Under the pieces are notes generated by a model that did no database searches, was not told where the DNA came from, and was given only the letters and a program-made list of their open reading frames with translations. Position numbers and translations under genes: made by a program. Shown here one piece after another: positions 38,961-64,000 of a stretch of DNA of 64,000 nucleotides (position 1 is its first letter; each line of letters opens with the position of its first letter). This DNA comes from Patescibacteria group bacterium (GTDB taxonomy: Bacteria > Patescibacteriota > Minisyncoccia > Phycocordibacterales > UBA918), in assembly GCA_019752815.1 (NCBI GenBank), contig JAIELQ010000014.1, positions 1,035 through 65,034 on the forward strand. The letters run 5' to 3'.

Positions 38961-39038
38961 ACAAGATAAATAGATTTATCAACACTAAACACCAGCCATC
39001 TCGGCTAGGTGTTTTTTGTTTCTGGTATACTAACGGTA

Positions 39039-40052: not shown

Positions 40053-40111
40053 CATTAGGGGGCATCAAAATTACCGTTTTACCTATAAAATAATAGGTAT
40101 AACAGTTTTTT

Positions 40112-40828
40112 ATGTCTGCGAAAAGTTTAGTAAAAAAATCTGACTCGATACCGCTCTCGGTAGCAGTCACACTCGTCTCATACTCGCGTGATTACATCGG
40201 TCGACTGGCTCGCGAAGGCAAGATTGTTGCCGAGCAAATTGATCGTGAATGGTACGTCAGTCGAGCGTCACTTTTAAACTTCGCAGAACATTCAACTCTT
40301 GAAGATTCGGTCAAGAAAAAAATCCTTAGTTTGTCGCGAAAAAATGATTTAGAGGTTAAAGATTTTTATACTCAAAAAGTTTCAAATATTAACACTCGTC
40401 AATATTTGGCCCGCACTCAAAGTCTGGTGTTAACGCTTATTATGCTTTTGGGAGGATCATTTCCTGGCTATCTTTTTTACACAAACGCTAATTTGCTTAC
40501 AGGTGCAAAGCCAGTTTCGATTGCAGAAACTCTCGGTTATCTTGATGTCGTCGGGTCTACACAAAGTGCTTTGGTGCCTGCTTCCTCACGGGAAAATGCC
40601 GCGGTGTGGACCGAGGGGTTGGTCGTTGAATCACAAGAATCTATCCCGATGGATGGGGGAATTGTCTTGTTTCCAACCCTGCAACCAAGCGACAAAGCAA
40701 CGGTTGAGGATCTGTTTTCGGATGATGTGACCGTGGTAATAACCAGTACGACAACTGGTTTTGTGCGTTCGGCTGATGGTACGTCCGAGCTACCGTTTGT
40801 GCGCGTGCCTGAGACTACGTCTTTTTAA
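40112..40828 (+). CDS. membrane-anchored protein with N-terminal excisionase/MerR-type HTH; paralog B
   Basis: VTLVSYSRDYIGRLAREGKIVAEQIDREWYV, paralogous to 39039. Central TM (LVLTLIMLLGGSFPGYLFY) then about 110 extracytoplasmic residues. Its stop is 3 nt before the ATG of the giant gene. Confidence 0.5.
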   Translation: MSAKSLVKKSDSIPLSVAVTLVSYSRDYIGRLAREGKIVAEQIDREWYVSRASLLNFAEHSTLEDSVKKKILSLSRKNDLEVKDFYTQKVSNINTRQYLARTQSLVLTLIMLLGGSFPGYLFYTNANLLTGAKPVSIAETLGYLDVVGSTQSALVPASSRENAAVWTEGLVVESQESIPMDGGIVLFPTLQPSDKATVEDLFSDDVTVVITSTTTGFVRSADGTSELPFVRVPETTSF

Positions 40829-49926: not shown

Positions 49927-50694
49927 ATGTACAGCAATCAAACACAATCACTCAATCATCTCGTACACAGAGTATTTTCTGTGTGGATTTTTGTACTGTT
50001 AGTACTGATGTTCGGGGTATGTCTCTCATTTTTGGTGGTACACAATGATGCATATGCTGCCGGTGTTGACTCCTGGGCCACCCCATCAGCTGCTGGTGAT
50101 AATGATATTTGGAATAGCGTGACCTTCGGTAATGGAGTATATGTTGCAGTGGCGTCAAGTACTGTTGCCGGGGGTAATAATGCGGTGATGTATTCTAGTG
50201 ACGGTATCACCTGGGCCACGACTTCAGTGTCTGGTGATAATGATATTTGGAATAGCGTGACCTTCGGTAACGGTCTTTTTCTAGCAGTGGGAGCAGGGTT
50301 GGGTATCGACCGGGTCATGTATTCTGATAATGGTATCACCTGGGCCACGACTTCTGCCGCTGGTAATAACGATCTTTGGAATGATGTTACCTATGGTAAT
50401 GGTGTATATGTTGCGGTGGCGTCAAGTACCGTAGCGGGAGGTAATCATGCAGTGATGTACTCCAGTGATGGTGTTACCTGGACTACTGCCACGGCCGCTG
50501 ATGATAATGACTATTGGGAAAGTGTCACTTTTGGCAACGGTCGTTTTGTGGCCGTTGGTCGTGGTGGTGACCGAGTCATGTATTCGAGTAACGGTATTGC
50601 CTGGACCGCTGCGACCCCTGCCGGTAATGATGATACTTGGATGTCTGTTACCTACGGCAACGGTCGATATGTGGCGGTGAACCGGGGCCGATAG
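49927..50694 (+). CDS. N-terminal fragment of second giant surface protein (TM anchor plus BNR/Asp-box repeats); frame broken at 50686-50694
   Basis: YSSDGITWATTS...GDNDIWNSVTFGNGV repeats (SxDGxTW Asp-box). The same repeat continues in the +1 frame in the next ORF. Confidence 0.55.
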   Translation: MYSNQTQSLNHLVHRVFSVWIFVLLVLMFGVCLSFLVVHNDAYAAGVDSWATPSAAGDNDIWNSVTFGNGVYVAVASSTVAGGNNAVMYSSDGITWATTSVSGDNDIWNSVTFGNGLFLAVGAGLGIDRVMYSDNGITWATTSAAGNNDLWNDVTYGNGVYVAVASSTVAGGNHAVMYSSDGVTWTTATAADDNDYWESVTFGNGRFVAVGRGGDRVMYSSNGIAWTAATPAGNDDTWMSVTYGNGRYVAVNRGR

Positions 50695-50698
50695 AGTC

Positions 50699-53600
50699 AT
50701 GTACTCAAACGATGGTATTACCTGGGCCACCTCAAGTGCCGCCGGTAATAATGATAGCTGGATATCGGTCACGTATGGTAATGGGCATTATGTGGGAGTT
50801 GGTAATTCTGGTGACCGAGTCATGTACTCAAACGATGGTATTACCTGGGCCACCACCACTGCTTCCGGTGATAATGATAGCTGGAATAGTATCACGTACA
50901 TAAATGGTCGATTTACGGTAGTCGGATCTGGACCGGGTACTAACCGAGTCATGTACGCGAATGCTTTTAATATTCTAGAACAAACGGCGTTTCGTTTCCG
51001 GGCTGATGACGGCAGTGAAATTGCGGCCAGTTATCGTGGAGGGCAAAACCAAAACCTCACCACTCCTACCAGTACCGCATTTCGATTGCGTGCTCAGGTA
51101 GCATCAACCATTGATCAGAATCTCCTTGGTGGATTTAAACTGCAGTACCGAGAAACTACTGATGATAGCTGGTTTGATGTCGGAGTTGATCAGGGTGCGC
51201 CATCAATTGTGGCGGCCACTTCAAGTCGTACTGCTGGGGACGTGCTCTCTCGTACTGTCGCGTTACCGACTTGTACGGCCGGAAATCTTTTGTTAGCGGT
51301 CGTTAGTTATGATGGTGTCGGTTCGGCAACTACCACGCTTTCTCAGGGTTGGACCAAATTTGCGGAACGCTCCAATGCACTTGTCGTATCGAGTGTGCTG
51401 TTTTGGAAATATTCGACGGGGAACGATACTCTCACTGTGCAAACCCCGGTGTCGGAGGAAAGTTCACATGTTGTGTACTGTATTGCAAATGCTGGTGCCC
51501 CATCAGCTTCGGGGGCTGATAGTAGTGGTACCGGCAGTAATCCACCCTTACATCGCGCCGGGCCAACCAGACAGCATCTCTGGATTGTGGTCCGTTCGGG
51601 TGATGCGCAAATACAGGCGACGGCGGCACCAACAGGCTATACAGCACCCATTGTGATAACGGCCAATACCCTTACTGGTGCTTCAACGTATACAGCATTC
51701 TCCATGTTCCTGTCTTCGACAACTGACCCCGGTACTTTTACGAATGCGGTTGAAGAGTGGGTGGCCTGGACGATTGCGGTGCCGCCACGACATACACCAG
51801 TCGTGGGGACGGCTGGCATGATGACCCATGCGACTGCAACCGGTGCCAATAATACCCAATATGGTTCGATTGCCTGGACTAATCCAAACAATGCTCGTTC
51901 ATCTGATAATGCTCGGGCGACCTTGACGGTCTCTAGTACGACAGCTTCTAACAACCTAACGGTTTCAAGTCTTGGTTTTGCAATTCCAGCCGGAGCAACC
52001 ATTCTGGGGATTGAGGCTGAAGTAGAAAAAACTCAGACGGGTGGTGCAGCAGGTAATGTGCGTGACAACAGTATCCGACTGCTAAAAAATGGTACGACTA
52101 CAGGTATTGCCAATCTTGCTCAGACAGCCACCAACTGGCTGTTGACCACCGATTACCTTATTACCTACGGGAGTACAACCGAGTTGTGGGGGACGACGTG
52201 GACGCCTGCTGATATTAACAACTCGGGCTTCGGTCTCGCAATTGCCGTCCAGGGTGCTGCTGTGGGAGCTAACCGGGTGGCTAACATTGATAACGTGATT
52301 ATCCGTGTACACTACCGCTTACCGGGTAGTATTGCGCTGGCCTCATCAACGTTTATAGCCAGTGGGGCACCGTCAACCACTGCACAACTGCTAACCCCGG
52401 GCACCATTGCCGCTACCTCAACCGGCTTTTCGGCTGGTCGGGTGACCGATGATGTGGCCGTGCTCAATCAGTTGTCAGTCGTTACCAGTCGTTATACCGA
52501 ACTCGAGTGGACACTGGTTGCTACGGGTACGGCCACGACCGGTTCACAATATTTACTTCGGGTGGTTTCTGAGAATGGGGACCCACTGCAAGCCTACAAG
52601 ACAACACCATTTGTACGTATCAGCAACGCAACCACTACCGGAGTGATAAACATTTCAGGCAGAGTGCTCGGTCCAACCGGTTCTGCAACCATACCAGCAG
52701 GTGTACCGATTGTGGCTGCGGTAGGGCAATTAAATCCTGTGCTATACGCCACTACCACCTCCGCCACTGGTGCGTATACATTTTCCATAGCTACCGGGAC
52801 CACACCGGGTGCGAGCTGGGATGGAGTATCAGCTGTGGGTAATAATGATATCTGGCAAAGTGTGACCTACGGCAATGGTCTCTTTGTGGCCGTGGGTAGT
52901 ACATCAGTTGATAATGTTATGATTTCAACTGACGGAATCGCCTGGGCTACTACTTCAGCGGTCGGTAACAACGACTCGTGGGAGAGTGTAACCTACGGCA
53001 ACGGCCGCTTTGTGGCAGTGGGTGATGCCGGGGATCGGGTGATGTATTCAGATGAGGGTATTGTCTGGAACACCACCTCAGTGGCTGGCAATAATGATAG
53101 TTGGCGAAGTGTAACCTACGGCAACGGCCGCTTCGTAGCGGTGGGTAGTGCTGGTGACCGGGTGATGTATTCAGACGATGGTATATCCTGGACTGTAGTG
53201 ACGGCTCTTGGTAATAATGATTTCTGGCAAAGTGTAACCTACGGCAACGGCCGCTTCGTAGCGGTGGGTGATTACCTGCAGCCTGGAGATGGGGTGATGT
53301 ATTCAGACGATGGTATATCCTGGACTGTAGTTTCAGCTGCTGGAAGTGACGATACGTGGCGATCGGTAACCTACGGCAACGGCCGCTTTGTAGCGGTGGG
53401 TGAGGGTGGTGACACTCGTGTCATGTATTCGACTGACGGTATCTCTTGGACTACCGCTTCTGCTTTAGGAAACAACGATACTTGGACATCAATAACCTAC
53501 GGCAACGGCCGGTTTGTAGCGGTGGGTGTTGGTGATGTTGTCAGTGAACAGGCGATGTATTCGACTGACGGCATCTCTTGGACGGTAGCGTCTGCACCAG

Positions 53601-56600
53601 CAGGAGCTAATACGTGGCGATCGGTAACCTACGGCAACGGCCGCTTTGTAGCGGTCAGTGCTTCTGGTCAGCCAGTGATGCTTTCTGATGCCGGTATTGG
53701 CGACACTACTCCTGCCGTCGTCTACACCAATAACGCCACTACCAGTGCAGCGGGTTTTATGATGGGACTCTCTGGCACCACCAGTCAAAGTAATGTCGTA
53801 CTGTATCAAAATGATGTCACCGTATTAAATGCCACCACCTCAGCGACCTCTAGTATTACCAAACTCGATGACATGACTTTCTTTGACAGTTCATTTGATA
53901 GTAATGTGGGCTATAGTGCGTCCCGAGACGGTACCCTCACCTTCACAGATGACCTCCGGGTTGCGACCGGCACTGCTCAGTTTTTGGGTAGAGATTTTAG
54001 AGTCGAGCAAGAAGTTGAGATTCAAGGGGTATTAGATTTATTTGGAACAGCATCAAACACGATTAATAGTCTCGTAGTCGCTACATCAGGTCGACTGGTG
54101 GGAACGCGTAATGGTTTGATAGTCGGCAGCTACAACAATAATGGGACGGTGGTTACGAATGGGGCGACTACGACCTTTGTTGGTTTAACTGGATACAACA
54201 CGCAGTATCCCGTGTTTCAAACCAGTACGACCACCGAATCTGTAGGTAGCACAATGAATGGTATTGCTATGTCTGAAGATGGGACAAAGTTTTTCTATAC
54301 TAACTTTGACCAAGTAAAAGAAGTGACGCTCAGTGTCCCGTACGACCTGCGGACTGGTTCCATCACTCATACTGTAGATCTAGAGAATGGATTTTATATT
54401 ACGACTGAAAGTCTGCATGTGGTGCAGGATGGTCGCAAAATGTATGTCAGTGGCTGGCAAAATGACACGATTAAAGAATACACCCTGAGCGTGCCATGGA
54501 ATCTCTCCACTGCCACGTTTACGGCAAGTACTAGTTTGGGGGCAAATAACTTCCCGCATTCAGTCTTTGTGTCAGACGATGGTCAACATTTGTACTCGAC
54601 CGTGCGGTCGCCAGAGCGAATTCGGCAATACCGCTTTGCGGTGCCGTACGATATCACGAGTCTCGTTTTCGTAGCTTCAACCAGTAATAATGAACGAATT
54701 GCAAGTAACGCTATTTGGGCCAGTCCCGATGGCGAATTTCTGATACAAGCAGGCGCTCAGGGGTCTATTAATCGCTTGCGGATGACGACGCCGTGGGATA
54801 TCACATCCCTAGTGACAGATAACAGTGGCAACAGTGTTTTGACTGAGTTAATCACAGACAATAATCGAGATGTGGAGGGTTTTTGGTTTGATCGTACCGG
54901 TACCAAAATGGTGGCCATAACTGCTGATCGAATCGCGGCCCTCTACACCCTCGGGGCAGACATTGGTGGTAATCTCACGGGGTCATCATCACTTGGTAGT
55001 GTTGTGTTTGACGGTGGGAAGAGCACGTTTGTCTCGTCAGCGAGTACTACCAATTTGCACGTCAATCCGAACGCAATTTTGGTGGCTCCGACGACTACGC
55101 TTAGCATAGCAGGTAATTACCTCAACACAGGTGAGTTTGATCATGCGAGTTTTAACGGTACCGTGGTATTAAGTGGTACAAGTAGTAGTATTACTGGGAG
55201 TACTACCGGTACCAGTAGCTTGAATAATCTGGTAGTAACGGGGAATTATTCGTTTGCTGGGGCCGGTACTACATCGGTGCGTAATATGACGGTGGTACCA
55301 GGTGCAACGCTTAATTTTGTAGCTAATAGTGGACTTGAGGTAGCGGAGAATTATACAAATAATGGTACTACAACTCTCCCAACCACACGCATAGTCGCTA
55401 CTGGTCGGGGGTTTGACTTGTCTCAGGCCCCACTGGGGAACGAATATTCTGTAGGGGCGCAAACCTTTGAACCTCGTGGAATTGAGTTTTCAGCTACCGG
55501 AAGCCTCATGTACATCACTGAGACTAGTTCAAATCAAATATTGGCCTACCGTTTAGGTATTCCGTGGGAGGTGTCAACCGCTAGTTATCTATATGCCACC
55601 AGTGTCGGAGCGGTCTCTTCAAATGTGACCTCGATTAGGTTTAAGCCGGATGGGATGCGCTTATTTGTCACAAATTATGATAATGATTTCATTGCCGAAT
55701 ATGCCCTCTCAGTGCCGTGGGATATCCGTACGACGTCGTTTCTGGCTACGACTTCGTCAGCCTTTAACATAACTAGTATTGATTTCTCTCGTGATGGTAC
55801 GAGGTTCTATGTACATGGTATCCAAAACAATGGCGTAACAAAGCAGTATACCCTGGGTGTCCCGTGGGACCTCAGTACACAAACGTACACTGACGGGTAT
55901 TATAGTACTCCAGCATTTACCTTGGCTAGTACCATTAGTGCTGATGGGACCAGCTTCTTCCAAAAAGTGGGAAGCGCTATAAGACAGTATCGGTTATTGG
56001 TACCACATGACTTTAATACCGTCCAAATTGTCGGTGATTTTGATTTGTCGCCATTTATGGATCATAACGGTGTCGAAGAAATGACCTTTGATAATGATGG
56101 TACACGGATGTACCTCACGAGTAACTTTACTGACAGTGTCTTTCAATTTAATCTGATTGACTCGCAAACGTTCGGAGGCACTATGACCGGCACTTCATCT
56201 CTGGCTAACTTCCGCGCCTCCAGCACGCTGCCGCTAACATTTGCCGCGACCGCTTCCACGAGTGACTTTACGATTGTGCCTGGCGCAGTAGTATACGCTC
56301 CAACCTCTACCCTGATTGTGTCAGGTAATTTCACTAATGCTGGCACCTTTATCCCGCGTGCTGGTACTACTACACTCTCTGGTACTGCTAGAACTATCAC
56401 CGGGAATATCACCTCATTGGACTCTGTCACCAACAGTCCTGACTACGGTCTTGCCAATATTACTGGAACCTATACATATATAGGTAACGGTACGACTTCA
56501 GCGCTCACGATTAATTCCGGTGCGTCTTTGACAGCTCCGAGTAACGGTAGACTAATGATTGCGCATGATTTTATCAATCGCGGTACGTATACCAATAACG

Positions 56601-59600
56601 GTGCGACGACTACGCTTGGGGGTAACTTGCGCTCGGCTGCGACGGGGACTAATGCGCTCGGGAACACTGTTATTGATGCTCGGAGTCAGGGGCAAAACTG
56701 GCAGGCGCTGACACCGGCGGGAAATAATGATGCCTGGATGGATGTCACCTATGGAGAAGGTCGTTTTGTAGCAGTGAGTCAGTTTAGTGGTGACAAAGTG
56801 ATGTACTCAGATGATGGGGTGTCGTGGACCGCATCGGCTGGTACGGCAGGCGATTGGAATGCCGTTACCTACGGCAACGGCCGTTTTGTCGCGGTGGGGT
56901 TTGCAGGCTCTAACCGGGTGATGTATTCCGATGATGGTATCACCTGGAACGCGGTATCGGTTTTCGGTGATAATGACAGCTGGGTGAGTATCACTTACGG
57001 CAACGGCCGTTTCGTAGCCGGGGCGTCTAGTGGCGATAACCGGGTGATGTATTCGGACGATGGTATCTCGTGGAATGCAGTTTCGGTGTTTGGTAATAAC
57101 GATGAATGGAATGCCGTCACCTACGGCAACGGCCGCTTTGTGGCGGTAGGTGCTGATTGTGGTTCGAGTCCTAGTATGATGTATTCCGCTGACGGAATTA
57201 ATTGGGCATCTTCAACTATTGGTATATGTAAAGTGTACGGTGTCACCTACGGTAACGGCCGCTTCGTGGCGGTGGGAGCATTCAGCGGTACCCCAATTCA
57301 GTATAGTGAGGATGGTGTCACCTGGACCCCAACCACAATCTCTTCAGGTAATTGGTATGATGTCACCTACGGTAACGGCCGCTTCGTGGCGGTTGGTAAT
57401 TTTGCGGCGGGTGACGGTTTGGCATATTCGTCTGATGGTGTTAATTGGGCAACCTCATCAGTTGCCGGAAACGACGAATGGTGGCAGGGTATTGCCTACG
57501 GCAACGGCCGTTTCGTAGCAGTGGCTGAAGACGGCACAAATCGTGCAATGGTTGCTCTCCCGCAAACGATATTCAACCAAAACGCCTCCACCACTAACCT
57601 CACCATTACCGGTAGCTCAACGTTAAACGCCTCTGGTACTACAGTCTCTGTTGCTGGCAACTACCAAAACCTCGGTACGCTCACAGCCTCCACTTCGACC
57701 TTTGTATTTAACGGTACTGGACCACAAGTCGCCAGCGGTACGATGTCAGCGAGCAGTAGCTTCCGCAACCTAACCCTCAGTAACACCTCCGGCAACGGCA
57801 CCACCTCACGTTCGATTACCTTTGGCGCACCACTCTCAGTCACGGGAACTTCGACGATTACCGCGAGTACCTCGGTAGCCTTCCAAGCGGGCGCCACCTC
57901 GACGTTCTCGCAGGTGTCGTGGCAGGGGACAGCAGGATCGCCCGTATGGCTACGATCAACTGCCACTGGTACACCATGGAACCTCACCATTACCGGTAAT
58001 AAAACTGTGGATTATGTTAATGTGCGTGATAGTAACGCAACCTCGACGGTGGGTGGTATTACACCTACAAATAGTACGAATGCCGGCAATAATACCAACT
58101 GGATCTTTGGTGGTGGACCGGTAGCGCAGGTTTGGAACGCAACAGATTGGACCTTGTTCGATACCATTACTATTCAAGAAGAAAACATCGATGCCACCCT
58201 CACTGATTTCCCGGTGTACGTTAATCTCGCTGATCTCAGTAGTACATTCTGGAGTACTACACCTGCGGGAGCTGCCTTGGTTGGTACGGACATTCGCGTA
58301 ACAACTGCTGATAATATCGAGATACCTCGTGAACTGGTGTTTGCATCTTCGACACTTGATACGGGTGAGCTACACTTTAGAGCGCCACAGATTTTATCGA
58401 CTACTGATACCACATTTAAGATTTGGTACAACGGGACAACGACGGGGGATTATGCTCGCACCGCCACCTACGGAACTGAGAATGTGTGGACGAATGATTA
58501 TGTAGCCGTCCTTCACCTTAATGAAGTGGGTAACAGCACTGCAAACGGCTATCTCGATTCAACAACAAATGGTTTTGATGGTACCGGTATCTCTATGACA
58601 GCCACTAGTTCGGTTACTGGAAAGTTAGGTGTTGCTCAAGATCTTGACGGTGTCAGTGACTATATCGATTTGGTTGGAAGTGTCACCTTGGGTAGTTCAA
58701 CCATTAGTACGTGGGTTAATGTTGCCAGTGCAGATCTTCAGCCGTGTGATGGTCTGGTTTTCTCACGCGGGACAAATGTGAGTGGTATTAATGTCGGAAA
58801 CTGTTCCGATGGTTTAAATGTCGGCTATCACTGGAATGATGCACAGTTTGGATGGGCTACCGGTTCGCCAGTGGTGACAAACCGATGGTCCTATATAGCA
58901 CTTGCAGTTGGGGCAGATAGAGCTACTACGTTCAGTAATGGTACATCAACAACAAATGTAGCCACGCACGCAACTTCAACATTTGATGATATACGCATTG
59001 GTGAAGATGAATTTAATGACCGACGATTCAATGGTCAGGTTGATGAGGTTCGCATAGCCTCTACTACTCGTTCGGCAGCTTGGCTCAAAGCTGAGTACAC
59101 AAACCAATCCACCACCACCAACTTCTACACCGTTAACTTGTCTGGGGTAGTTGGCTCGTCTACAATCAGTAACTCCGTCGCGGGGCAGGTTGGGAACGCC
59201 TTCACCTCCCAGAACGTGACCGACGGTACGCTCTATAGCTTCAGGGTAGTACCAAATAGTGGTACAGCTGATGCCACCGAAGTGAGAATTGACGTTACCG
59301 GCCTCCAGAACGTTAACCCTGAAAACTTTAGTAACATGCGGATAGCGTGGGACTTTAATGAAAATGGAACTTTCGACGTTGAAGATTTTGTGATTGTCGA
59401 CAGCGGCCTCTTTACCGCAAATGGTCAAAACGGTTCAATCGCATTTGATGATAATAACGTAACCTTTGGTGGCTCAAATACTCTAACCGGACCAATTAAC
59501 CTGCTTATAATCGCTAACTGGACTGCTCCGCAGAACGGATCGTTTATGACTCTCCGCTTGAATCCTAGTGGACTGACCCTTGTTGATGGTAACGGTGTGC

Positions 59601-60247
59601 AACAAATATTCGGTTCAGTATCGAGTGTTCAGCACTTCCGTAATAATCGTGGTGGTGGTGGCAGTAGTGCTAGTGCTGGCGGTAACGCGCCAGCTGGAGC
59701 AGGGAACGTGGGTGGTGGTGGCAGTACGGGTGGAGAAAATATTGGCAATGATCCAGATTTCTTCTCACCAAGTAGTAATAGTGGATCGTGGTCAAGTGGC
59801 GCCAATGCCTATGACGGTGTTGACGGCACGTATGCCACAACGAGTGCCGCCTACAATCATAGTTACAGTAATCATGGTTTTGGTATCCCAGGCACCAACG
59901 TGATTAGTGGAATTATTGTGAAGTTAGAGTTATCTGGTTCAACTGCGGCTGGAACAGTTAATGTGCAATTGTCATGGGATGGAGGTAATACCTGGACTAC
60001 TGCCAAGACCAGTCCAACCCTCACGACTGCTGATGCGGTCAGAACCTTTGGTTCTCCGAGTGATCTCTGGGGTCGTGCGTGGAGTGCGAGTGAATTTACC
60101 AACCCTAACTTTGCGGTGCGCATTGCCGGTAATCCAAGTAGTAATACCGTGAGGCTCGACGCGATACAGGTTCGGGTATACCACACCGCCGGTGGTGGTG
60201 GGGCCGGAGGAGGAGGTGGAGCAGGTGGTGGCGGGGGAGGAATCTAA
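50699..60247 (+). CDS. second giant surface protein, main part (3182 aa): BNR/Asp-box propeller repeats, SVPWDxxT repeat module, LamG/ConA-like domain, poly-Gly C-terminus
   Basis: 12 or more copies of VMYSxDGIxWxxxS...NDxWxSVTYGNGRFVAVG. LamG-like: FDGTGISMTATSS...DGVSDYIDLVG...RFNGQVDEVRIASTTRSAAWLKAEY. C-terminus AGGGGAGGGGGAGGGGGGI. Confidence 0.65.
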   Translation: MYSNDGITWATSSAAGNNDSWISVTYGNGHYVGVGNSGDRVMYSNDGITWATTTASGDNDSWNSITYINGRFTVVGSGPGTNRVMYANAFNILEQTAFRFRADDGSEIAASYRGGQNQNLTTPTSTAFRLRAQVASTIDQNLLGGFKLQYRETTDDSWFDVGVDQGAPSIVAATSSRTAGDVLSRTVALPTCTAGNLLLAVVSYDGVGSATTTLSQGWTKFAERSNALVVSSVLFWKYSTGNDTLTVQTPVSEESSHVVYCIANAGAPSASGADSSGTGSNPPLHRAGPTRQHLWIVVRSGDAQIQATAAPTGYTAPIVITANTLTGASTYTAFSMFLSSTTDPGTFTNAVEEWVAWTIAVPPRHTPVVGTAGMMTHATATGANNTQYGSIAWTNPNNARSSDNARATLTVSSTTASNNLTVSSLGFAIPAGATILGIEAEVEKTQTGGAAGNVRDNSIRLLKNGTTTGIANLAQTATNWLLTTDYLITYGSTTELWGTTWTPADINNSGFGLAIAVQGAAVGANRVANIDNVIIRVHYRLPGSIALASSTFIASGAPSTTAQLLTPGTIAATSTGFSAGRVTDDVAVLNQLSVVTSRYTELEWTLVATGTATTGSQYLLRVVSENGDPLQAYKTTPFVRISNATTTGVINISGRVLGPTGSATIPAGVPIVAAVGQLNPVLYATTTSATGAYTFSIATGTTPGASWDGVSAVGNNDIWQSVTYGNGLFVAVGSTSVDNVMISTDGIAWATTSAVGNNDSWESVTYGNGRFVAVGDAGDRVMYSDEGIVWNTTSVAGNNDSWRSVTYGNGRFVAVGSAGDRVMYSDDGISWTVVTALGNNDFWQSVTYGNGRFVAVGDYLQPGDGVMYSDDGISWTVVSAAGSDDTWRSVTYGNGRFVAVGEGGDTRVMYSTDGISWTTASALGNNDTWTSITYGNGRFVAVGVGDVVSEQAMYSTDGISWTVASAPAGANTWRSVTYGNGRFVAVSASGQPVMLSDAGIGDTTPAVVYTNNATTSAAGFMMGLSGTTSQSNVVLYQNDVTVLNATTSATSSITKLDDMTFFDSSFDSNVGYSASRDGTLTFTDDLRVATGTAQFLGRDFRVEQEVEIQGVLDLFGTASNTINSLVVATSGRLVGTRNGLIVGSYNNNGTVVTNGATTTFVGLTGYNTQYPVFQTSTTTESVGSTMNGIAMSEDGTKFFYTNFDQVKEVTLSVPYDLRTGSITHTVDLENGFYITTESLHVVQDGRKMYVSGWQNDTIKEYTLSVPWNLSTATFTASTSLGANNFPHSVFVSDDGQHLYSTVRSPERIRQYRFAVPYDITSLVFVASTSNNERIASNAIWASPDGEFLIQAGAQGSINRLRMTTPWDITSLVTDNSGNSVLTELITDNNRDVEGFWFDRTGTKMVAITADRIAALYTLGADIGGNLTGSSSLGSVVFDGGKSTFVSSASTTNLHVNPNAILVAPTTTLSIAGNYLNTGEFDHASFNGTVVLSGTSSSITGSTTGTSSLNNLVVTGNYSFAGAGTTSVRNMTVVPGATLNFVANSGLEVAENYTNNGTTTLPTTRIVATGRGFDLSQAPLGNEYSVGAQTFEPRGIEFSATGSLMYITETSSNQILAYRLGIPWEVSTASYLYATSVGAVSSNVTSIRFKPDGMRLFVTNYDNDFIAEYALSVPWDIRTTSFLATTSSAFNITSIDFSRDGTRFYVHGIQNNGVTKQYTLGVPWDLSTQTYTDGYYSTPAFTLASTISADGTSFFQKVGSAIRQYRLLVPHDFNTVQIVGDFDLSPFMDHNGVEEMTFDNDGTRMYLTSNFTDSVFQFNLIDSQTFGGTMTGTSSLANFRASSTLPLTFAATASTSDFTIVPGAVVYAPTSTLIVSGNFTNAGTFIPRAGTTTLSGTARTITGNITSLDSVTNSPDYGLANITGTYTYIGNGTTSALTINSGASLTAPSNGRLMIAHDFINRGTYTNNGATTTLGGNLRSAATGTNALGNTVIDARSQGQNWQALTPAGNNDAWMDVTYGEGRFVAVSQFSGDKVMYSDDGVSWTASAGTAGDWNAVTYGNGRFVAVGFAGSNRVMYSDDGITWNAVSVFGDNDSWVSITYGNGRFVAGASSGDNRVMYSDDGISWNAVSVFGNNDEWNAVTYGNGRFVAVGADCGSSPSMMYSADGINWASSTIGICKVYGVTYGNGRFVAVGAFSGTPIQYSEDGVTWTPTTISSGNWYDVTYGNGRFVAVGNFAAGDGLAYSSDGVNWATSSVAGNDEWWQGIAYGNGRFVAVAEDGTNRAMVALPQTIFNQNASTTNLTITGSSTLNASGTTVSVAGNYQNLGTLTASTSTFVFNGTGPQVASGTMSASSSFRNLTLSNTSGNGTTSRSITFGAPLSVTGTSTITASTSVAFQAGATSTFSQVSWQGTAGSPVWLRSTATGTPWNLTITGNKTVDYVNVRDSNATSTVGGITPTNSTNAGNNTNWIFGGGPVAQVWNATDWTLFDTITIQEENIDATLTDFPVYVNLADLSSTFWSTTPAGAALVGTDIRVTTADNIEIPRELVFASSTLDTGELHFRAPQILSTTDTTFKIWYNGTTTGDYARTATYGTENVWTNDYVAVLHLNEVGNSTANGYLDSTTNGFDGTGISMTATSSVTGKLGVAQDLDGVSDYIDLVGSVTLGSSTISTWVNVASADLQPCDGLVFSRGTNVSGINVGNCSDGLNVGYHWNDAQFGWATGSPVVTNRWSYIALAVGADRATTFSNGTSTTNVATHATSTFDDIRIGEDEFNDRRFNGQVDEVRIASTTRSAAWLKAEYTNQSTTTNFYTVNLSGVVGSSTISNSVAGQVGNAFTSQNVTDGTLYSFRVVPNSGTADATEVRIDVTGLQNVNPENFSNMRIAWDFNENGTFDVEDFVIVDSGLFTANGQNGSIAFDDNNVTFGGSNTLTGPINLLIIANWTAPQNGSFMTLRLNPSGLTLVDGNGVQQIFGSVSSVQHFRNNRGGGGSSASAGGNAPAGAGNVGGGGSTGGENIGNDPDFFSPSSNSGSWSSGANAYDGVDGTYATTSAAYNHSYSNHGFGIPGTNVISGIIVKLELSGSTAAGTVNVQLSWDGGNTWTTAKTSPTLTTADAVRTFGSPSDLWGRAWSASEFTNPNFAVRIAGNPSSNTVRLDAIQVRVYHTAGGGGAGGGGGAGGGGGGI

Positions 60248-60337
60248 GATATGTGATATCCCCAGACCATACGTACAACGTAAAATTATTACTAAAAAGG
60301 TTGCTAAAATAATAATAAATAAATTAATAAAAAATAT

Positions 60338-61027
60338 ATGAAGTCAACATTAACTCTTACCGTAACAATCAAGCAGGCGTTTGTTACCGCACTTATCGCT
60401 ATGGTTATCAGCGCAGTTTCATTTGGTATACTAGAGCCAGCGCTTGGGCACGCCCAAACTGATGAATTTCTTGTCACCCAAACGATCACAAGTGAAATTT
60501 CATTTGTTGCCTCTACATCGGATGTGGTAATGACACCCAACCTTCAGTCTCTCACCGGAGGAACTAGTCTTGGTACTACGACAGTGGTGATTCGTACCAA
60601 CGACAATGACGGATATAACTTGACGATTCATTTCTCGAGTACTACAGCTATGGCTAGAAATGGCGGTGGTGGCGTAATCAATAACTATGTCGCGACAGCA
60701 ACACCTGACTTTGCGTATAATACCGGACAAGTGTTTGGTCAGCTAGCCTACCGGGTTACTGGTGCACAGGCGGCTGATGTTGACCCGACCTTCCGAGACA
60801 ATGGTGCCGCGTGTGGTACTGGAGGCGGTAACACCTACGGCGCTTGCTGGATGGGTCCGGAAACAGCCGGTAATGCCGAAATGATTATTAACCGGGCCTC
60901 TTCGACACCTGGTGGCGGATCAACTACAACATTAAACTTTAGAGTGACTATTCCAGCTAACCCAAACCCAACTATTCCTGACGGAGTGTACGTAGCTACT
61001 TCTACATTGACTGCCGTTACCAACTAA
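60338..61027 (+). CDS. secreted Cys-loop protein, WxL-domain-like (paralog 1)
   Basis: Signal peptide. CGTGGGNTYGAC loop. C-terminal GVYVATSTLTAVTN resembles the WxL distal motif GxYxGxLTWTL with W replaced by L. Confidence 0.4.
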   Translation: MKSTLTLTVTIKQAFVTALIAMVISAVSFGILEPALGHAQTDEFLVTQTITSEISFVASTSDVVMTPNLQSLTGGTSLGTTTVVIRTNDNDGYNLTIHFSSTTAMARNGGGGVINNYVATATPDFAYNTGQVFGQLAYRVTGAQAADVDPTFRDNGAACGTGGGNTYGACWMGPETAGNAEMIINRASSTPGGGSTTTLNFRVTIPANPNPTIPDGVYVATSTLTAVTN

Positions 61028-61051
61028 CGTACACTGGCACTAACATAGGTT

Positions 61052-62098
61052 ATGTCCAGTCTCACCTTCAGACTCCAGTTCGTCACGTTTGCGCTATTTG
61101 CAATGTTACTGATGCCAGGAATCATTCTTGCGCAAACTGCTACTACTACACCAACTGCTTCTACCACTCCTGTTGCTGCACCAGTACCTGATACGGTACT
61201 ACCTGATACATATCGCATTGAACAATTGTTTGGTGACGAGGTGGTAGGTGACTTTGTGGTAGGACCAGGCAAGGTGGAATTACAAATAGCGCCTGGACAG
61301 AGTAAAACGGTAACAATTAGTGTATCCAATCGTACCGGAGCAGCCAAGCTCTTTAAGCTAGAAATGGAAGATGCGGCTGGCTCACAAGATCCCAACACAC
61401 CGATTGTTCTCCTTGGTGAACAAACGGGACCATATACGATGAAAGATTTCATTAGGGTAGCTGATGATTCTTTTATCATTGAGCACAACAAGCGTGTGCA
61501 GATTCCCGTAACGATTACACTGCCTGTTAATGCTGAGCCGGGAGGACTGTATGGGAGCCTCTTGGTAACTACTAGTTCGCTCACTCCAGAAACTGAATCT
61601 GGTGCGCCTCGTTCAGCGATTGTCAGTCGAATTGGTACATTGTTTTTTATCACCGTACCAGGTGCTGTTGAACGAAGTGGAGAAATGATTGATTTTTCAA
61701 CTGTCCCTGAGAAAAAGTTTTACACAAAAGGACCAGTCACCATGGGTGTTTTATTTGAGAACACTGGTTCAATGCATCTCAATCCCTACGGTTCGATAAC
61801 AGTCAAAAATACCTTTGGTGAAGAAGTTGGTTTCGTTGAAATTGAACCGTGGTTTGTGATGCCTAAGTCATTGCGTTTGCGTGAGATAACCTGGGACAGA
61901 GAGTTATTGTTTGGGCGCTACGCCATTACTGCTGAAATTAATCGGGGGTATGATGATGTGGTTGATACCAAAGTTATGTATATTTGGGTCTTACCATGGC
62001 CAGTTATGTTGGGGTTGTTTACAACGGTGTTCCTTATGTTTATCTTTATTAAATTCATTGCCAGTCGATTTGAATTCAAGCGTAAATCAGTACGCTAA
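61052..62098 (+). CDS. surface protein with N-terminal signal peptide and C-terminal TM anchor plus basic tail (DUF916/DUF3324 CscA-like topology)
   Basis: MSSLTFRLQFVTFALFAMLLMPGIILAQT... ends PWPVMLGLFTTVFLMFIFIKFIASRFEFKRKSVR. Confidence 0.45.
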   Translation: MSSLTFRLQFVTFALFAMLLMPGIILAQTATTTPTASTTPVAAPVPDTVLPDTYRIEQLFGDEVVGDFVVGPGKVELQIAPGQSKTVTISVSNRTGAAKLFKLEMEDAAGSQDPNTPIVLLGEQTGPYTMKDFIRVADDSFIIEHNKRVQIPVTITLPVNAEPGGLYGSLLVTTSSLTPETESGAPRSAIVSRIGTLFFITVPGAVERSGEMIDFSTVPEKKFYTKGPVTMGVLFENTGSMHLNPYGSITVKNTFGEEVGFVEIEPWFVMPKSLRLREITWDRELLFGRYAITAEINRGYDDVVDTKVMYIWVLPWPVMLGLFTTVFLMFIFIKFIASRFEFKRKSVR

Positions 62099-62101
62099 AC
62101 T

Positions 62102-62866
62102 ATGGTCCAGATAGTCACCCGTTCTTTCTTGTATGCGGTAAGTACCACTCTTTTAGTGGTTCTTTTGCTTGATGTGGGGAGTGCGCAGGTGATGGAAAGT
62201 AATAATTATAAAATGCAAAGTGACAGCCTCAATGCTGGTGGGGGACTGTCTAACTCAGAGTCCTTTAAAATGGAGGATACAGTCGGTGAGATTGCTACCG
62301 GTAATAGCACGAGCACCAGTTTTAATCTCAGAGCCGGCTATCAGCAAATGCAGGAAGTGTTTCTGGGTCTATCGGCGATTCCAGATGCTATTTTGTCACC
62401 AAATCTCGGAGGAGTGACAGGAGGTACTTCAACTGGGTCGACAACGTTTGTGGTAACTACTGATAGTCCGTCAGGATATACAGCGACGATTGAGGGTTCA
62501 AATAGTCCTGCAATGCGCAGTGGTAGTAATTCAATTGCAGATTATGTCCCAGTAGGCGGTGTGCCCGATTTTGCCCTGATTACTGATTCAAACGAAGCTC
62601 ATTTGGCCTATAGTCCTGAAGGGACTGATATTGCTGTGCGATTTCAAGATGCGGGTAGTGTCTGTGGTGTCGCCGGTAGCGATACACCCAATCGGTGTTA
62701 TCAAGGATTATCCACGACCCCGGTGGAGATAGTGCGGCGTACGACCCCTAATCATCCTGCTGGTTCCACTACTACCATTAAGTTTAGTGTTGGTATTGGT
62801 GGTACTATAGATGTACCCGAGGGTGTGTATGTAGCGACGACCACCATCACGGCGTTGCCATTATGA
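62102..62866 (+). CDS. secreted Cys-loop protein, WxL-domain-like (paralog 2)
   Basis: Signal peptide. CGVAGSDTPNRC loop. C-terminal EGVYVATTTITALPL, paralogous to 60338. Confidence 0.4.
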   Translation: MVQIVTRSFLYAVSTTLLVVLLLDVGSAQVMESNNYKMQSDSLNAGGGLSNSESFKMEDTVGEIATGNSTSTSFNLRAGYQQMQEVFLGLSAIPDAILSPNLGGVTGGTSTGSTTFVVTTDSPSGYTATIEGSNSPAMRSGSNSIADYVPVGGVPDFALITDSNEAHLAYSPEGTDIAVRFQDAGSVCGVAGSDTPNRCYQGLSTTPVEIVRRTTPNHPAGSTTTIKFSVGIGGTIDVPEGVYVATTTITALPL

Positions 62867-64000
62867 TGACACTCCAAAAATTTTGCTATGGGCTTTTGGT
62901 ACTAACGCTCTTTACACCTGGCGCACTGTTTGCAGTTGGTGATGATATTACCATTTCACAACAAATTGGAATTGATACTGCGCCACCGACTACCCCAATT
63001 TTACAAACCGTGGTTCCGGTTGCTACAACCCAAATTGATGTGACTTGGTCAGCCTCGACTGACGATATTGCAGTAGCAGGGTATCGGTTATTCCGCGGAG
63101 GAGTACAAATCGCAACCACCACGCTATTGTCCTATAGTGATACCGGACTTACACCTAGTACGACGTATCAGTATACCGTTGATGCGTTTGATACTTCTTT
63201 TAACTTTTCCTCCACATCACCGCAAGTCTCAACCACTACCTTAAATATAGTCGTCACGCCAACCCCTTCAAGTACAGGAACTACGAGTGGCTCTTCTGGT
63301 ACTCGGACGGCACCAAATGTCGTATCTTTTCAAATTACCACCACTGAACGAAGTGCATTTTTTACTTGGGAAACAAGTAATCCTACCCAGTATGTCATCG
63401 CCTGGGGGCGTACGACCGCCTATGAATTAGGGTCAGTATCAGGTAGTACATACAAACAAAATCACACTACGGTAATTGATGCGCTTGAGCCGGGTACTCG
63501 GTACTATTATGAGTTACGAGCAATCAATGTCCGTGGCATAACTACTGTTCTGTCAGCTGACAGCTTTACTACTAAAAGCGCGGTGACTACAGGTACACTG
63601 CCAAACGTACAGGGCTTTATCGCCCAAGCGCGAGACACTGACGTTGTCTTGTCCTGGAGGAATGTCTTTTCAAATCCTGACTATTATGTTCGGATTGTGC
63701 GAAGCCATTTCTTTTACCCCAGCAACATTCAAGGTGGGGCAGTAGTGTATGAAGGTAAGGGAGAGTCTTTTACCGATCGTGACGCACTGGCGTTGCGCTC
63801 GCCCCAGTATTACACGATTTTTGTACGTAATACCTCGGGTGACGTCTCGTCGGGTGCAATTGCCCGAGCGTTCAAAATGATTGAGGGAGGGAATGGTCAG
63901 CCCACTGGTACGCAGTCAACGAATACTCAAGCAACGAGCACTATTCCCGCTGATATTGGTGACGATACCATTTTGCGGGCTATCGACATCACTATTGTGC
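62866..64000 (+). CDS. secreted protein with 3 or more fibronectin-type-III-like domains (3' end beyond window)
   Basis: ATG 62866 overlaps the upstream stop (TGATG). Signal peptide, then FN3-like units (TQIDVTWSASTDDIAVAGYRLFRGG...TTYQYTVDAFD; FFTWETSNPTQYVIAWG...GTRYYYELRAIN). Not in the ORF track because it is incomplete. Confidence 0.55.
   Translation, partial: MTLQKFCYGLLVLTLFTPGALFAVGDDITISQQIGIDTAPPTTPILQTVVPVATTQIDVTWSASTDDIAVAGYRLFRGGVQIATTTLLSYSDTGLTPSTTYQYTVDAFDTSFNFSSTSPQVSTTTLNIVVTPTPSSTGTTSGSSGTRTAPNVVSFQITTTERSAFFTWETSNPTQYVIAWGRTTAYELGSVSGSTYKQNHTTVIDALEPGTRYYYELRAINVRGITTVLSADSFTTKSAVTTGTLPNVQGFIAQARDTDVVLSWRNVFSNPDYYVRIVRSHFFYPSNIQGGAVVYEGKGESFTDRDALALRSPQYYTIFVRNTSGDVSSGAIARAFKMIEGGNGQPTGTQSTNTQATSTIPADIGDDTILRAIDITIV

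Follow-up and report, generated by a model that had tools for sequence, protein, structure and literature searches.

A compact operon of Paceibacteria-type CPR bacteria that probably encodes a surface fibre assembled with a WxLIP-like chaperone and without an usher

The Pam pilus was described in Ca. Mycosynbacter amalyticus, a CPR bacterium (Troman et al., bioRxiv 2026, 10.64898/2026.03.03.709456). The model put forward there comprises a tip (PamT), pilins, an anchor (PamR) and membrane-anchored chaperones, with an N-terminal strand of PamR proposed to enter the final pilin; furthermore, paired cysteines were described in PamA and PamB. WxL/Csc clusters are known from Lactobacillales and Listeria and encode CscA/WxLIP, a small WxL protein (CscB), a large WxL protein (CscC) and an LPXTG protein (CscD). 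For these, an AlphaFold2 prediction has a hairpin of WxLIP becoming ordered and inserting into WxL, completing its sandwich (PMC10599100). Here, we describe an operon of four genes (P1-P2-P3-P4, 60338-64000, all on the + strand) from a 64,000-nucleotide stretch of DNA, referred to as the window, and we consider it likely that P1-P4 form a compact Paceibacteria-type CPR operon for a thin, adhesive surface fibre, which is built by donor-strand exchange with the help of a chaperone and needs no usher. The operon and its surroundings contain the following features:

39009-40828, +, two paralogous proteins with helix-turn-helix and membrane segments, 347 aa and 238 aa (weak HTH_17 match)
40832-49876, +, second of the giant surface proteins (3014 aa), containing LVIVD/beta-propeller repeats (Pfam LVIVD)
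49927-50694, +, ORF of 255 aa whose hydrophobic N-terminus is signal-like and which, in another reading frame, has the repeats of the 3182-aa protein
50699-60247, +, repeat-rich giant surface protein, 3182 aa (ORF), immediately upstream of P1
60338-61027, +, P1, 229-aa small subunit (ORF; paralogue of P3)
60458-60505, +, P1 N-terminal strand, putative donor strand (residues 41-56, TDEFLVTQTITSEISF)
60812-60847, +, P1 Cys-x10-Cys loop, C159-C170 (both cysteines invariant in the family)
61052-62098, +, P2, 348 aa, WxLIP/CscA (DUF916) homologue (Pfam PF06030, Foldseek, hhalign)
61580-61627, +, P2 hairpin loop (residues ~177-192), low-confidence, flanked by two long strands where domain 1 ends
61997-62071, +, P2 C-terminal transmembrane helix (residues 316-340, AlphaFold2 helix H316-340), followed by FEFKRKSVR
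62102-62866, +, P3, 254 aa, PamT-like subunit (NCBIfam PamT, E 1.3e-12)
62192-62353, +, P3 N-terminal extension (residues ~31-84) with three tandem [ST]xNYx[IL] repeats
62663-62698, +, P3 Cys-x10-Cys loop, C188-C199 (both invariant in 60 sequences)
62863-64000, +, P4, FN3-repeat protein (Pfam fn3), 5' part, 379 of about 525 codons
62938-62970, +, P4 mature N-terminal strand GDDITISQQIG (family consensus from 54 homologues)

A first-pass annotation had recognized two paralogous secreted proteins, a 348-aa protein with signal peptide, C-terminal transmembrane segment and KRK tail between them, and an FN3-repeat protein following. ORFs and BLASTP agree on the former pair (P1 and P3), P2 has the described topology and position, and P4 matches Pfam fn3 (E 1.8e-10, 2 stretches), with its gene continuing past the window end. 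The tight packing of 0-4 nt noted at the same time holds for P2/P3 (gap of 3 nt) and P3/P4 (4-nt overlap, ATGA), but not for P1/P2, which are separated by 24 nt. The layout of small subunit, chaperone-like protein, second or large subunit and anchored protein mirrors that of Csc/WxL clusters, as had been proposed. This order is kept wherever the contig permits among 80 species-level CPR genomes, which belong to Kaiserbacteria, Paceibacteria and relatives, one large branch of these ultra-small bacteria. In 66 of the 80 species-representative genomes P1-P2-P3-P4 recurs on the same strand, and the remaining loci are interrupted by contig ends or, in 2 cases, have an additional P1 copy. Such a recurrence is far beyond chance. 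Gene fusions occur as well: two loci (L094 and L095) carry the P3 module at the C-terminus of a 2187-aa and a 670-aa protein, respectively, and in another variant P2 and P3 are joined in one ORF.

In P2, a signal peptide and a Thr/Pro-rich linker precede two beta-sandwich domains, and a membrane helix with a KRK tail forms the C-terminus. P2 is a true homologue of WxLIP/CscA. PF06030 matches P2 with 27.1 bits (E 4.7e-6), just under the cut-off of 27.3 bits, and matches all 63 of 63 P2 family members. The profile-profile comparison with DUF916 suggested earlier returned a probability of 95.4% (E 1.9e-8, hhalign) between the P2 family and Firmicutes WxLIPs, and the solved EfmWxLIP1 of E. faecium is matched by the family profile with E 7.5e-7. 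The protein already bears the NCBI name 'DUF916 domain-containing protein'. Furthermore, the AlphaFold2 model of P2 (pLDDT 87) finds WxLIP 9i25_C as its top Foldseek match in the PDB (E 5.6e-12), together with 9i1y, then RbmA and then the chaperones CfaA, CsuC, CupB2, Caf1M, PapD and FimC (E 1e-8 to 4e-6). The reading of P2 as a DUF916/DUF3324 CscA protein stands for DUF916, but the second domain lacks a DUF3324 sequence match. NCBIfam gave no hit for P2 itself (E <= 10), and none of its Pam-named models was hit by the P2 family (E <= 1). Within the hairpin block, where pLDDT falls to 61, the loop aligns with the EfmWxLIP1 segment that follows the GRVLAGIHVS strand; it is a candidate for the strand donated to a subunit. 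The residues F340, E341, F342 and R344 are invariant across the family. We propose that P2 is a membrane-anchored chaperone.

P1 and P3 are paralogous across their C-terminal ~165 residues (38% identity, E 6e-21, BLASTP). P1 is built from a signal peptide, an N-terminal strand and a beta domain that reaches the protein's C-terminus (DGVYVATSTLTAVTN), while in P3 three SxNYx[IL] repeats lie between the signal peptide and the C-terminal domain shared with P1 (ending in EGVYVATTTITALPL). The Cys-x(9-10)-Cys loop described earlier is conserved in both, with a spacing of exactly 10 in each; C159, C170 and W171 are invariant in the P1 family alignment, and C159-C170 is a probable disulphide. Both proteins relate to Pam subunits. 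PamT is matched by 60/60 P3 family members, and in P3 this match falls on the N-terminal repeat extension; Pam_pilin_C is weakly matched by 3/55 P1 family members (best E 6.8e-4), and the matches of both families to this C-domain are weak but collinear. All Pam matches lie below the NCBIfam cut-offs (47.7 vs 240 bits; 14.6 vs 55 bits), and that of P3 to PamT is accordingly under the equivalog cut-off. The P1 family diverges faster than the P3 family (mean column identity 43% vs 63%). We propose P1 as the repeating fibre subunit and P3 as a tip or adaptor subunit.

In the AlphaFold2 monomer model, the N-terminal extension of P3 is disordered (pLDDT <50, residues 29-82), and the C-terminal domain is modelled with a pLDDT of ~90, its last strand spanning residues 247-253 of 254. 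Nearly all fold matches are subunits of donor-strand fibres, and the best ones of P3 in the PDB (CanA cannulae, TasA and TasA-like fibres, PapE, the PapG pilin domain, FimF/G, CfaB, CsuA/B) assemble in this way without exception; these matches are weak, none reaching E <= 1e-3. Three [ST]xNYx[IL] copies are present in 61/80 P3 family members. A motif directly after the signal peptide is common to P1 and P4, with three related copies in P3. Its consensus is [ST]-D-x-F-T-[IV]-[TRS]-Q-x-I-T-x-E-I-S-F in the P1 family, where F and I/V are found in 100%, Q in 98% and E in 96% of 54 members, and [TS]-[SD]-D-F-x-[IV]-[RQS]-x-[FL]-[VI]-G-x-D-T-T-P-P-T-T-P in P4 (54 homologues). Extended strand motifs were found at the N-termini of 35/74 P4, 52/80 P3 and 22/72 P1 proteins, compared with 4/423 other ORFs. 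In P1, this strand may act as donor strand. P4 is invariably located downstream of P3, and full-length homologues end in a C-terminal transmembrane helix with a KRRR tail (L001:10762-12330, L003:10774-12360). We thus propose that P4, with its PamR-like topology, is membrane anchor and terminator.

Upstream of the operon, the 3182-aa protein ends with a conserved ~110-aa domain followed by the tail ...VYHTAGGGGAGGGGGAGGGGGGI, and a giant with the same C-terminal domain and poly-Gly tail is encoded upstream of P1 in 26/80 loci, mostly at a distance of ~40-260 nt. It is probably an adhesin displayed by the P1-P4 system, a functional link to which synteny and the fused variants point. The 255-aa ORF is probably an N-terminal part split off from the giant gene, as related loci hold these repeats within single long ORFs. 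The 3014-aa protein matches Pfam LVIVD with E 1.4e-89 over 7 stretches. Homologues of the helix-turn-helix proteins are found directly upstream of P1 in 17/80 loci without intervening giant (mostly 72-175 nt off), and the 347-aa and 238-aa proteins are possibly membrane-bound regulators of the locus.

Considering the homologies, predicted folds, topologies, synteny and fusions together, we infer strand donation, polymerisation and the following order of assembly. P1, P2, P3 and P4 would be exported by the Sec pathway, and P2 would be kept in the membrane by its C-terminal helix. As in WxLIP and in PapD/FimC-type chaperones, a hairpin strand from the first Ig-like domain of P2 could then fill the open beta-sandwich of P1 and P3 after their export; each of the two terminates exactly at its last strand. 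The PamT-like P3 would initiate the fibre and carry or dock an adhesin, which in some genomes is joined to the N-terminus of P3 and for which the upstream 3182-aa protein is the likely partner here. P1 subunits would join singly, the N-terminal strand of each displacing the chaperone strand, until P4, whose mature N-terminus resembles the P1 strand, caps the last subunit and its C-terminal helix ties the fibre to the membrane.

A stable chaperone-subunit complex that does not polymerise, which is the current interpretation of WxLIP-WxL, fits most of the same data. P2 would then permanently and non-covalently hold P1 and P3 at the cell surface, as a platform presenting adhesins or binding the wall. 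The WxLIP homology of P2, the crystallised stable complex of WxLIP and long WxL (entry 9i25), the shared cluster layout and a literature that describes an anchoring platform rather than a fibre (PMC9772566, PMC10599100) all speak for it. [quoted passage not shown] Their only family matches are subunits of a filament observed by cryo-EM, and a static complex leaves both the N-terminal strand motif common to P1, P3 and P4 and the constant presence of a separate membrane-anchored P4 unexplained. We therefore regard this arrangement as possible but rather unlikely, and the WxL/Csc reading of the cluster as half right, since P2 is WxLIP/CscA-like whereas P1 and P3 match PamT and the Pam pilin C-domain instead. 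A match to an unrelated family such as pilins had been named as an outcome against that reading; P1 and P3 do match Pam pilin families, but these may not be unrelated to WxL, because in both systems a membrane-anchored two-Ig-domain protein completes the subunit fold with a strand.

It appears improbable that P1 and P3 polymerise alone into a TasA- or cannula-like fibre next to an unrelated Ig-like surface protein or adhesin P2. While the best folds of P3 include the Pyrodictium cannula subunit (9h8b, E 0.013), TLP-1b and TasA, whose fibres need no PapD-like chaperone, chaperone-usher pilins score at least as well in this list. Moreover, P2 lies between P1 and P3 wherever the contig holds both flanks, is fused to P3 in one ORF, and has fold matches to proteins that use a strand to cap subunits. 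Sortase-dependent pili, type IV pili and S-layers are what monoderm and CPR cells usually carry as fibres and surface layers. Type IV pili have also been documented in Saccharibacteria (cited within 10.64898/2026.03.03.709456). We nevertheless give such structures very little credence here: P1, P3 and P4 lack LPXTG motifs and the cluster lacks a sortase, no class III signal peptide, ATPase or platform gene adjoins the operon, and Pfam and NCBIfam yielded no such matches. Donor-strand exchange assisted by P2 remains our preferred reading.

Compared with classical and archaic chaperone-usher pili (Pap, Fim, CFA/I, Csu), the operon shares a chaperone with two Ig-like domains (Foldseek E 1e-8 to 4e-6), an N-terminal extension as candidate donor strand, and subunits that finish at the last strand with the tail G-x-Y-x-A-T-x-T-[LI]-T-A, which is similar to the pattern of the C-terminal strand in fimbrial subunits. 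However, outer membrane and usher are missing, its chaperone is membrane-anchored rather than soluble, sequence similarity is not detectable and the subunit fold match is weak (E 0.03-0.1). With WxL/Csc clusters it shares a WxLIP homologue in sequence and fold, the gene layout, subunit domains at the extreme C-terminus in small and large (adhesin-fused) forms, and, in the E. mundtii clusters examined, an N-terminal strand motif common to the small subunit and the anchored protein. It differs in that P1 and P3 have neither WxL motifs nor similarity to PF13731, the second domain of P2 has no DUF3324 sequence match, the conserved NQIDKxxxYFDLK motif is absent, the anchor combines a membrane helix with FN3 repeats instead of being a small LPXTG protein, and the phylum is another.

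The Pam pilus and the operon are both limited to CPR bacteria. They have in common Sec-exported subunits with an incomplete C-terminal Ig-like domain and paired cysteines, a PamT homologue (P3, E 1.3e-12), a basal FnIII protein whose C-terminus forms a membrane helix, and the lack of an usher; P2 also resembles PamC/PamD by description (signal peptide, two Ig domains, C-terminal membrane helix). However, P1 and P3 are single-domain proteins with a short N-terminal extension, whereas PamA, PamB and PamE have an N-terminal beta-sandwich domain, and the operon has one chaperone and four genes compared to two chaperones and seven or more genes. It occurs in Paceibacteria/Kaiserbacteria rather than Saccharimonadia/Microgenomatia, next to giant adhesins, helix-turn-helix membrane proteins and pentose-phosphate genes rather than ATP synthase genes. 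Furthermore, its chaperone P2 is detectably DUF916, a link that the Pam preprint does not make (10.64898/2026.03.03.709456). The parts of this operon thus connect two systems that have been described separately, the WxL/Csc surface clusters found in lactic acid bacteria and the Pam pili known from CPR bacteria, and a common ancestry of both is plausible.

The region 60338-64000 of the ORF listing contains four co-directional genes, P1 to P4:

60338-61027, + strand: P1, ORF of 229 aa, small secreted protein paralogous to P3
61052-62098, + strand: P2, ORF of 348 aa, chaperone-like protein
62102-62866, + strand: P3, ORF of 254 aa, small secreted protein paralogous to P1
62863 to past the window end, + strand: P4, FN3-repeat ORF, 5' part within the window

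P1 and P2 are separated by 24 nt and P2 and P3 by 3 nt, and P3 and P4 overlap by 4 nt. The first-pass annotation had described the genes as tightly packed, with stop/start overlaps of 0-4 nt; the gap between P1 and P2 corrects this point, and its description of the cluster is otherwise accurate. Proteins identical to P1, P2, and P3 are on record at NCBI, two of them with locus tags (K2P47_04430 and K2P47_04440), and P2 already carries the NCBI name 'DUF916 domain-containing protein'. Within the window, the subunit domain is found only in P1 and P3; the upstream ORFs of 347, 238, and 255 aa were checked as further copies of the module, and none of them is one. A promoter and terminator scan of 60150-64000 yielded counts that did not differ from those of shuffled sequence.

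Relatives of P3 were sought by a pattern scan with one genome per species, which revealed 231 genomes with relatives, the best 80 of which were analyzed. These 80 are labeled as Kaiserbacteria, Paceibacteria/Paceibacterota, Nomurabacteria, Taylorbacteria, Parcubacteria, and uncultured 'Saccharibacteria', with one contig labeled Nanoarchaeia. P1-P2-P3-P4 lie on one strand in 66 of these best 80 loci, while the others are cut by contig ends (12/80) or contain an extra P1 (2/80). P3 is far more conserved than P1 (mean column identity of 63% vs 43%), and its length is nearly always 254 among the homologues. An 8-kb contig from a bin named 'Candidatus Nanoarchaeia archaeon' (locus L053, DATGWK010000115.1) harbors the whole P1-P2-P3-P4 operon with approximately 50% identity to the CPR versions, for which misbinning is likelier than an archaeal copy. 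Downstream of P4, gap, rpiB, rpe, and split transketolase genes occur in loci from distant genomes (L001, L003, L004), and the chromosomal position of the operon is therefore stable.

P2 is a homologue of WxLIP/CscA, the DUF916 protein of WxL/Csc clusters, with a chaperone-like fold, because Pfam, profile, hhalign, and PDB fold matches agree; this bears out the role that the first-pass annotation had proposed for it. The two beta-sandwich domains of the protein are accompanied by a signal sequence, a Thr/Pro-rich linker, and a helix (316-340) followed by FEFKRKSVR, and with its signal peptide, C-terminal TM helix, KRK tail, and 348 aa it corresponds to the WxLIP/CscA pattern (320-380 aa). P2 itself scores 27.1 bits against Pfam PF06030 (WxLIP_PGBD, formerly DUF916; cut-off 27.3), and the same model matches 63/63 sampled members of the P2 family, with a best E of 1.7e-9. 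The family profile identified the solved Enterococcus faecium WxLIP (EfmWxLIP1) at E 7.5e-7, and an hhalign comparison of the family with eight Firmicutes WxLIPs from plasmids gave a probability of 95.4% (E 1.9e-8). Furthermore, the best PDB fold matches of the AlphaFold2 model (pLDDT 87) in Foldseek were 9i25_C (E 5.6e-12), entitled 'WxLIP from E. faecium locus A bound to long WxL', and then 9i1y, followed by RbmA and the chaperones CfaA, CsuC, CupB2, Caf1M, PapD, and FimC at E 1e-8 to 4e-6. DUF3324 (PF11797) was matched by sequence in 0/63 family members; the second beta-sandwich is present in the model, and the Foldseek alignment to 9i25_C covers 268 columns. The conserved N-terminal WxLIP motif NQIDKxxxYFDLK is absent in the P2 family, with GDFVVGPGKVEL at the aligned position. 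AlphaFold2 puts the hairpin strand of WxLIP into the gap of the WxL sandwich (Hassan et al., PMC10599100), and P2 has a hairpin modeled with low confidence (residues ~177-192) at the aligned position. An unannotated stretch with 74% identity to E. faecium WxLIP1 is also present in a record labeled as a Klebsiella pneumoniae plasmid (CP069367.1, 102183-102480); such a sequence is unusual in a Gram-negative host, and contamination or mislabeling of the record may account for it.

P1 and P3 are paralogous over approximately 165 C-terminal residues (38% identity, E 6e-21), with a Cys-x10-Cys loop that is invariant in both, and end in GVYVATSTLTAVTN and GVYVATTTITALPL, respectively. Neither matches a Pfam family. 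P3 matches the NCBIfam model 'CPR-type pilus protein PamT' (NF058579) at E 1.3e-12 and 47.7 bits over model positions 8-129 of 241, below the equivalog cut-off of 240 bits, and this model also matches 60/60 members of the P3 family. At the level of sequence, P3 is a homologue of PamT and not an equivalog. P3 additionally shows a weak match to the 'Pam pilus system pilin subunit' (NF058581; 14.6 bits, E 0.027, collinear over positions 15-146 of 148), below the 55-bit cut-off of this pilin C-terminal domain, for which the best E values were 0.0021 in the P3 family and 6.8e-4 in the P1 family, with 3/55 P1-family members matching. The extension ahead of the C-terminal domain comprises just 15-55 residues in P1 and P3, which differ in this from the two-domain build of Pam pilins. 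In the AlphaFold2 model of P3, the C-terminal domain (85-254) has a pLDDT of ~90 and a last strand at 247-253, while the N-terminal extension (29-82) is disordered. A PDB fold search with this model gave no match at E 1e-3 or better, and the top of the weak list consists mostly of donor-strand fibre subunits, its names including Pyrodictium cannulae, TasA, TasA-like fibres, PapE, the PapG pilin domain, FimF/G, CfaB, and CsuA/B. The P3 family yielded nothing against PDB sequences at E <= 10.

The first-pass annotation had read P1 and P3 as diverged WxL proteins within a Csc-like surface complex, and it is worth noting that their gene context agrees with the rules for WxL clusters (PMC9772566, PMC10599100): the P1/P3-type domain lies at the extreme C-terminus, a DUF916/WxLIP gene is adjacent, and small and large forms exist. 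Two stretches are also collinear by eye, V-x-V-x-T-[ND]-x-x-x-G-Y-x-[LA]-T in P1/P3 with V-x-V-x-D-x-R-G-x-x-x-G-W-x-L in WxL, and G-x-Y-x-A-T-x-T-[LI]-T-A with A-x-x-Y-x-T-T-L-T-W-x-L. However, the hallmark of WxL proteins is two Trp-x-Leu motifs on adjacent strands, and at both collinear positions Trp is missing in P1 and P3, which have G-Y-N-L-T / G-Y-T-A-T and T-L-T-A / T-I-T-A there. Pfam WxL (PF13731) matched neither P1 nor P3 (E <= 10) nor any of 60 P3-family members (E <= 1). For profile comparison, annotated WxL proteins, both small and large, encoded on plasmids of Enterococcus, Lactococcus, and Lactiplantibacillus were aligned. The domains were trimmed and the families kept apart, and hhalign was run both locally and globally alongside reversed and shuffled controls. 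In comparisons with 9 Firmicutes WxL domains, the P1 and P3 families reached probabilities of 0.2-1.4% (P 0.035-0.37), similar to the reversed template, whereas the chaperone pair of P2 and WxLIP reaches 95% by this method. The solved WxL chain 9i25_A is present in the fold library and lies outside the top 50 fold matches of P3. Membership of P1 and P3 in the WxL family is not supported by these comparisons, with no hhalign signal above the reversed control; a very distant relationship to WxL may exist. Conversely, an NCBIfam scan of Firmicutes WxL and WxLIP proteins gave no Pam match.

P4 carries FN3 repeats (Pfam), and its full-length homologues comprise 522-528 residues and end in a membrane helix with a KRRR tail. 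Its mature N-terminus, [TS]-[SD]-D-F-x-[IV]-[RQS]-x-[FL]-[VI]-G followed by a PPTTP linker, can be set beside that of P1, a conserved strand [ST]-D-x-F-T-[IV]-[TRS]-Q-x-I-T-x-E-I-S-F, and three tandem [ST]-x-N-Y-x-[IL] repeats are present in P3 of 61/80 homologues. An extended strand motif occurs in 31-65% of P1, P3, and P4 N-termini, compared to 1% of other ORFs in the same loci. The WxL clusters of Enterococcus mundtii follow the same logic as CPR P1 and P4, with a strand common to the small WxL and the LPXTG protein, in this case the N-terminal stretch EVRxVxTxGxIxFT. In the corresponding plasmid loci (L009:4551-5712 and L012:4532-5747), the NCBIfam model EF0750_LPXTG also matches the N-terminus of the small WxL protein (E 1.4e-5).

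Two-domain tip adhesins of chaperone-usher pili are built like a further group of proteins, which in some CPR genomes hold the position of P3 and end in a complete P3 module of repeats and domain. Large WxL proteins share this arrangement (PMC9772566). Examples of these proteins and a fusion are:

L094:5187-11750: large P3-module protein (2187 aa), SNY repeats and domain at its end
L095:3266-5278: large P3-module protein (670 aa), SNY repeats and domain at its end
L093:385-2034: P2-P3 fusion (protein P0339, 549 aa), P2-like chaperone including the membrane helix, and complete P3

The latter, on a 2.3-kb contig, is either a natural fusion or the result of a lost stop codon.

The conserved locus extends beyond the region flagged in the first-pass annotation, because genes for giant and helix-turn-helix (HTH) proteins recur upstream of P1. 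In the window, these neighbors are:

39009-40052 and 40112-40828: two paralogous HTH proteins, each with an N-terminal helix-turn-helix, a membrane segment, and a C-terminal ...FSD(E/D)V... domain
40832-49876: 3014-aa LVIVD-repeat protein, at least 7 LVIVD repeats, beta-propeller similarity
49927-50694: 255-aa ORF in another reading frame, hydrophobic N-terminus/signal sequence, 'VMYSxDGITW' repeats as in the 3182-aa protein
50699-60247: 3182-aa repeat protein, upstream of P1

In 26/80 loci, a giant protein encoded upstream of P1 has the same C-terminal domain and poly-Gly tail as the 3182-aa protein (...VYHxxGGGGxGGGGxI), and its gene lies approximately 40-260 nt from P1 in most cases. These protein ends (window 59900-60247; L016, L017, L021, L031, L035, L070, and others) consist of a conserved domain of ~110 aa and an almost invariant VYH-x-x-GGGG-x-GGGG-x-(I/L)-COOH. 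This tail could be a sorting, processing, or docking signal, and we know of no described equivalent. The 3182-aa protein itself has no signal peptide, and together with the 255-aa ORF it gives the impression of a single gene divided by a frameshift, which may be real or due to an assembly error. The 3014-aa protein ends in an acidic, Gly/Pro-rich low-complexity tail, unlike that of the 3182-aa protein. Since homologues of the HTH proteins directly precede P1 in 17/80 loci, these proteins may regulate the operon from the membrane.

The homologies, predicted folds, topologies, synteny, and fusions observed here are best accounted for by a compact, usher-independent relative of the Pam pilus. P2 would be a membrane-anchored chaperone, P3 a tip or adaptor, P1 the repeating subunit, and P4 the membrane anchor, with the giant adhesins as likely cargo; we infer strand donation, polymerisation, and the order of assembly. 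A static WxL-like complex in place of a fibre is a serious rival, which the WxLIP homology of P2 and the WxL-like gene context would suit as well; the PamT homology of P3 and the donor-strand fibre subunits in its fold list point to the pilus relative. Readings as a sortase-dependent pilus, a type IV pilus, or an S-layer were discarded, since the locus shows none of their hallmarks; neither a sortase nor an ATPase gene was found alongside the operon. Attachment to host cells is the presumed way of life of CPR bacteria, and the operon is a concrete candidate for the attachment apparatus of Paceibacteria-type lineages, since it occurs in at least 231 species-level genomes, usually beside giant adhesin genes.

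Chaperone-usher pili use an outer-membrane usher, whereas an usher gene was found neither in this operon or the rest of the window nor at the 80 related loci, and CPR cells are not known to have an outer membrane. In enterococci, listeriae, and lactobacilli, WxL/Csc clusters have been associated with virulence and colonization, and the recognizable WxLIP chaperone offers a testable route to re-read them as donor-strand assembly systems. The Pam comparison rests on a June 2026 preprint (10.64898/2026.03.03.709456), from which the NCBIfam Pam models stem and in which two filaments of Ca. Mycosynbacter amalyticus were solved. It proposes that PamT forms the tip and that donor-strand exchange links the pilins PamA, PamB, and PamE; PamC and PamD, which carry a C-terminal membrane helix, would act as PapD-like chaperones, and PamR, an FnIII protein with a membrane helix, as the anchor (10.64898/2026.03.03.709456). 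By these descriptions, P2, likewise PapD-like with a C-terminal membrane helix, resembles PamC/PamD, and the P4 homologues, FnIII proteins with a C-terminal membrane helix, resemble PamR. In contrast, a Pam pilin combines an N-terminal sandwich of 9 strands with a linker donor strand and a C-terminal domain, and this sandwich is lacking in P1 and P3. The Pam neighbors are ATP synthase genes according to the preprint, whereas gap, rpiB, rpe, and split transketolase genes follow the operon in the distant genomes mentioned above. The operon would carry the Pam principle over to a further large CPR class, in a form reduced to four genes.

Because its chaperone is a WxLIP homologue and its subunit a PamT homologue, the operon suggests that WxL clusters and Pam pili are related; the literature searched held no paper linking WxL/DUF916 to CPR pili or donor-strand exchange. 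A broader proposal, which we regard as possible while leaning slightly against it, is that WxL/Csc of Firmicutes, Pam of Saccharimonadia/Microgenomatia, and the Paceibacteria operon represent separate branches of a single ancient assembly system in bacteria with one membrane. A membrane-anchored PapD-like chaperone (WxLIP/CscA, P2, or PamC/D) would cap incomplete Ig-like subunits (WxL, P1/P3, or the Pam C-terminal domains), these would be joined by N-terminal donor strands, and a wall- or membrane-anchored protein with the same strand (the LPXTG protein CscD of WxL/Csc clusters, P4, or PamR) would end the chain. The operon in the window would be the sequence-level bridge, as its chaperone matches DUF916 and its subunit PamT, and WxL proteins, if the proposal is true, would be pilin-like subunits and not mere peptidoglycan binders.
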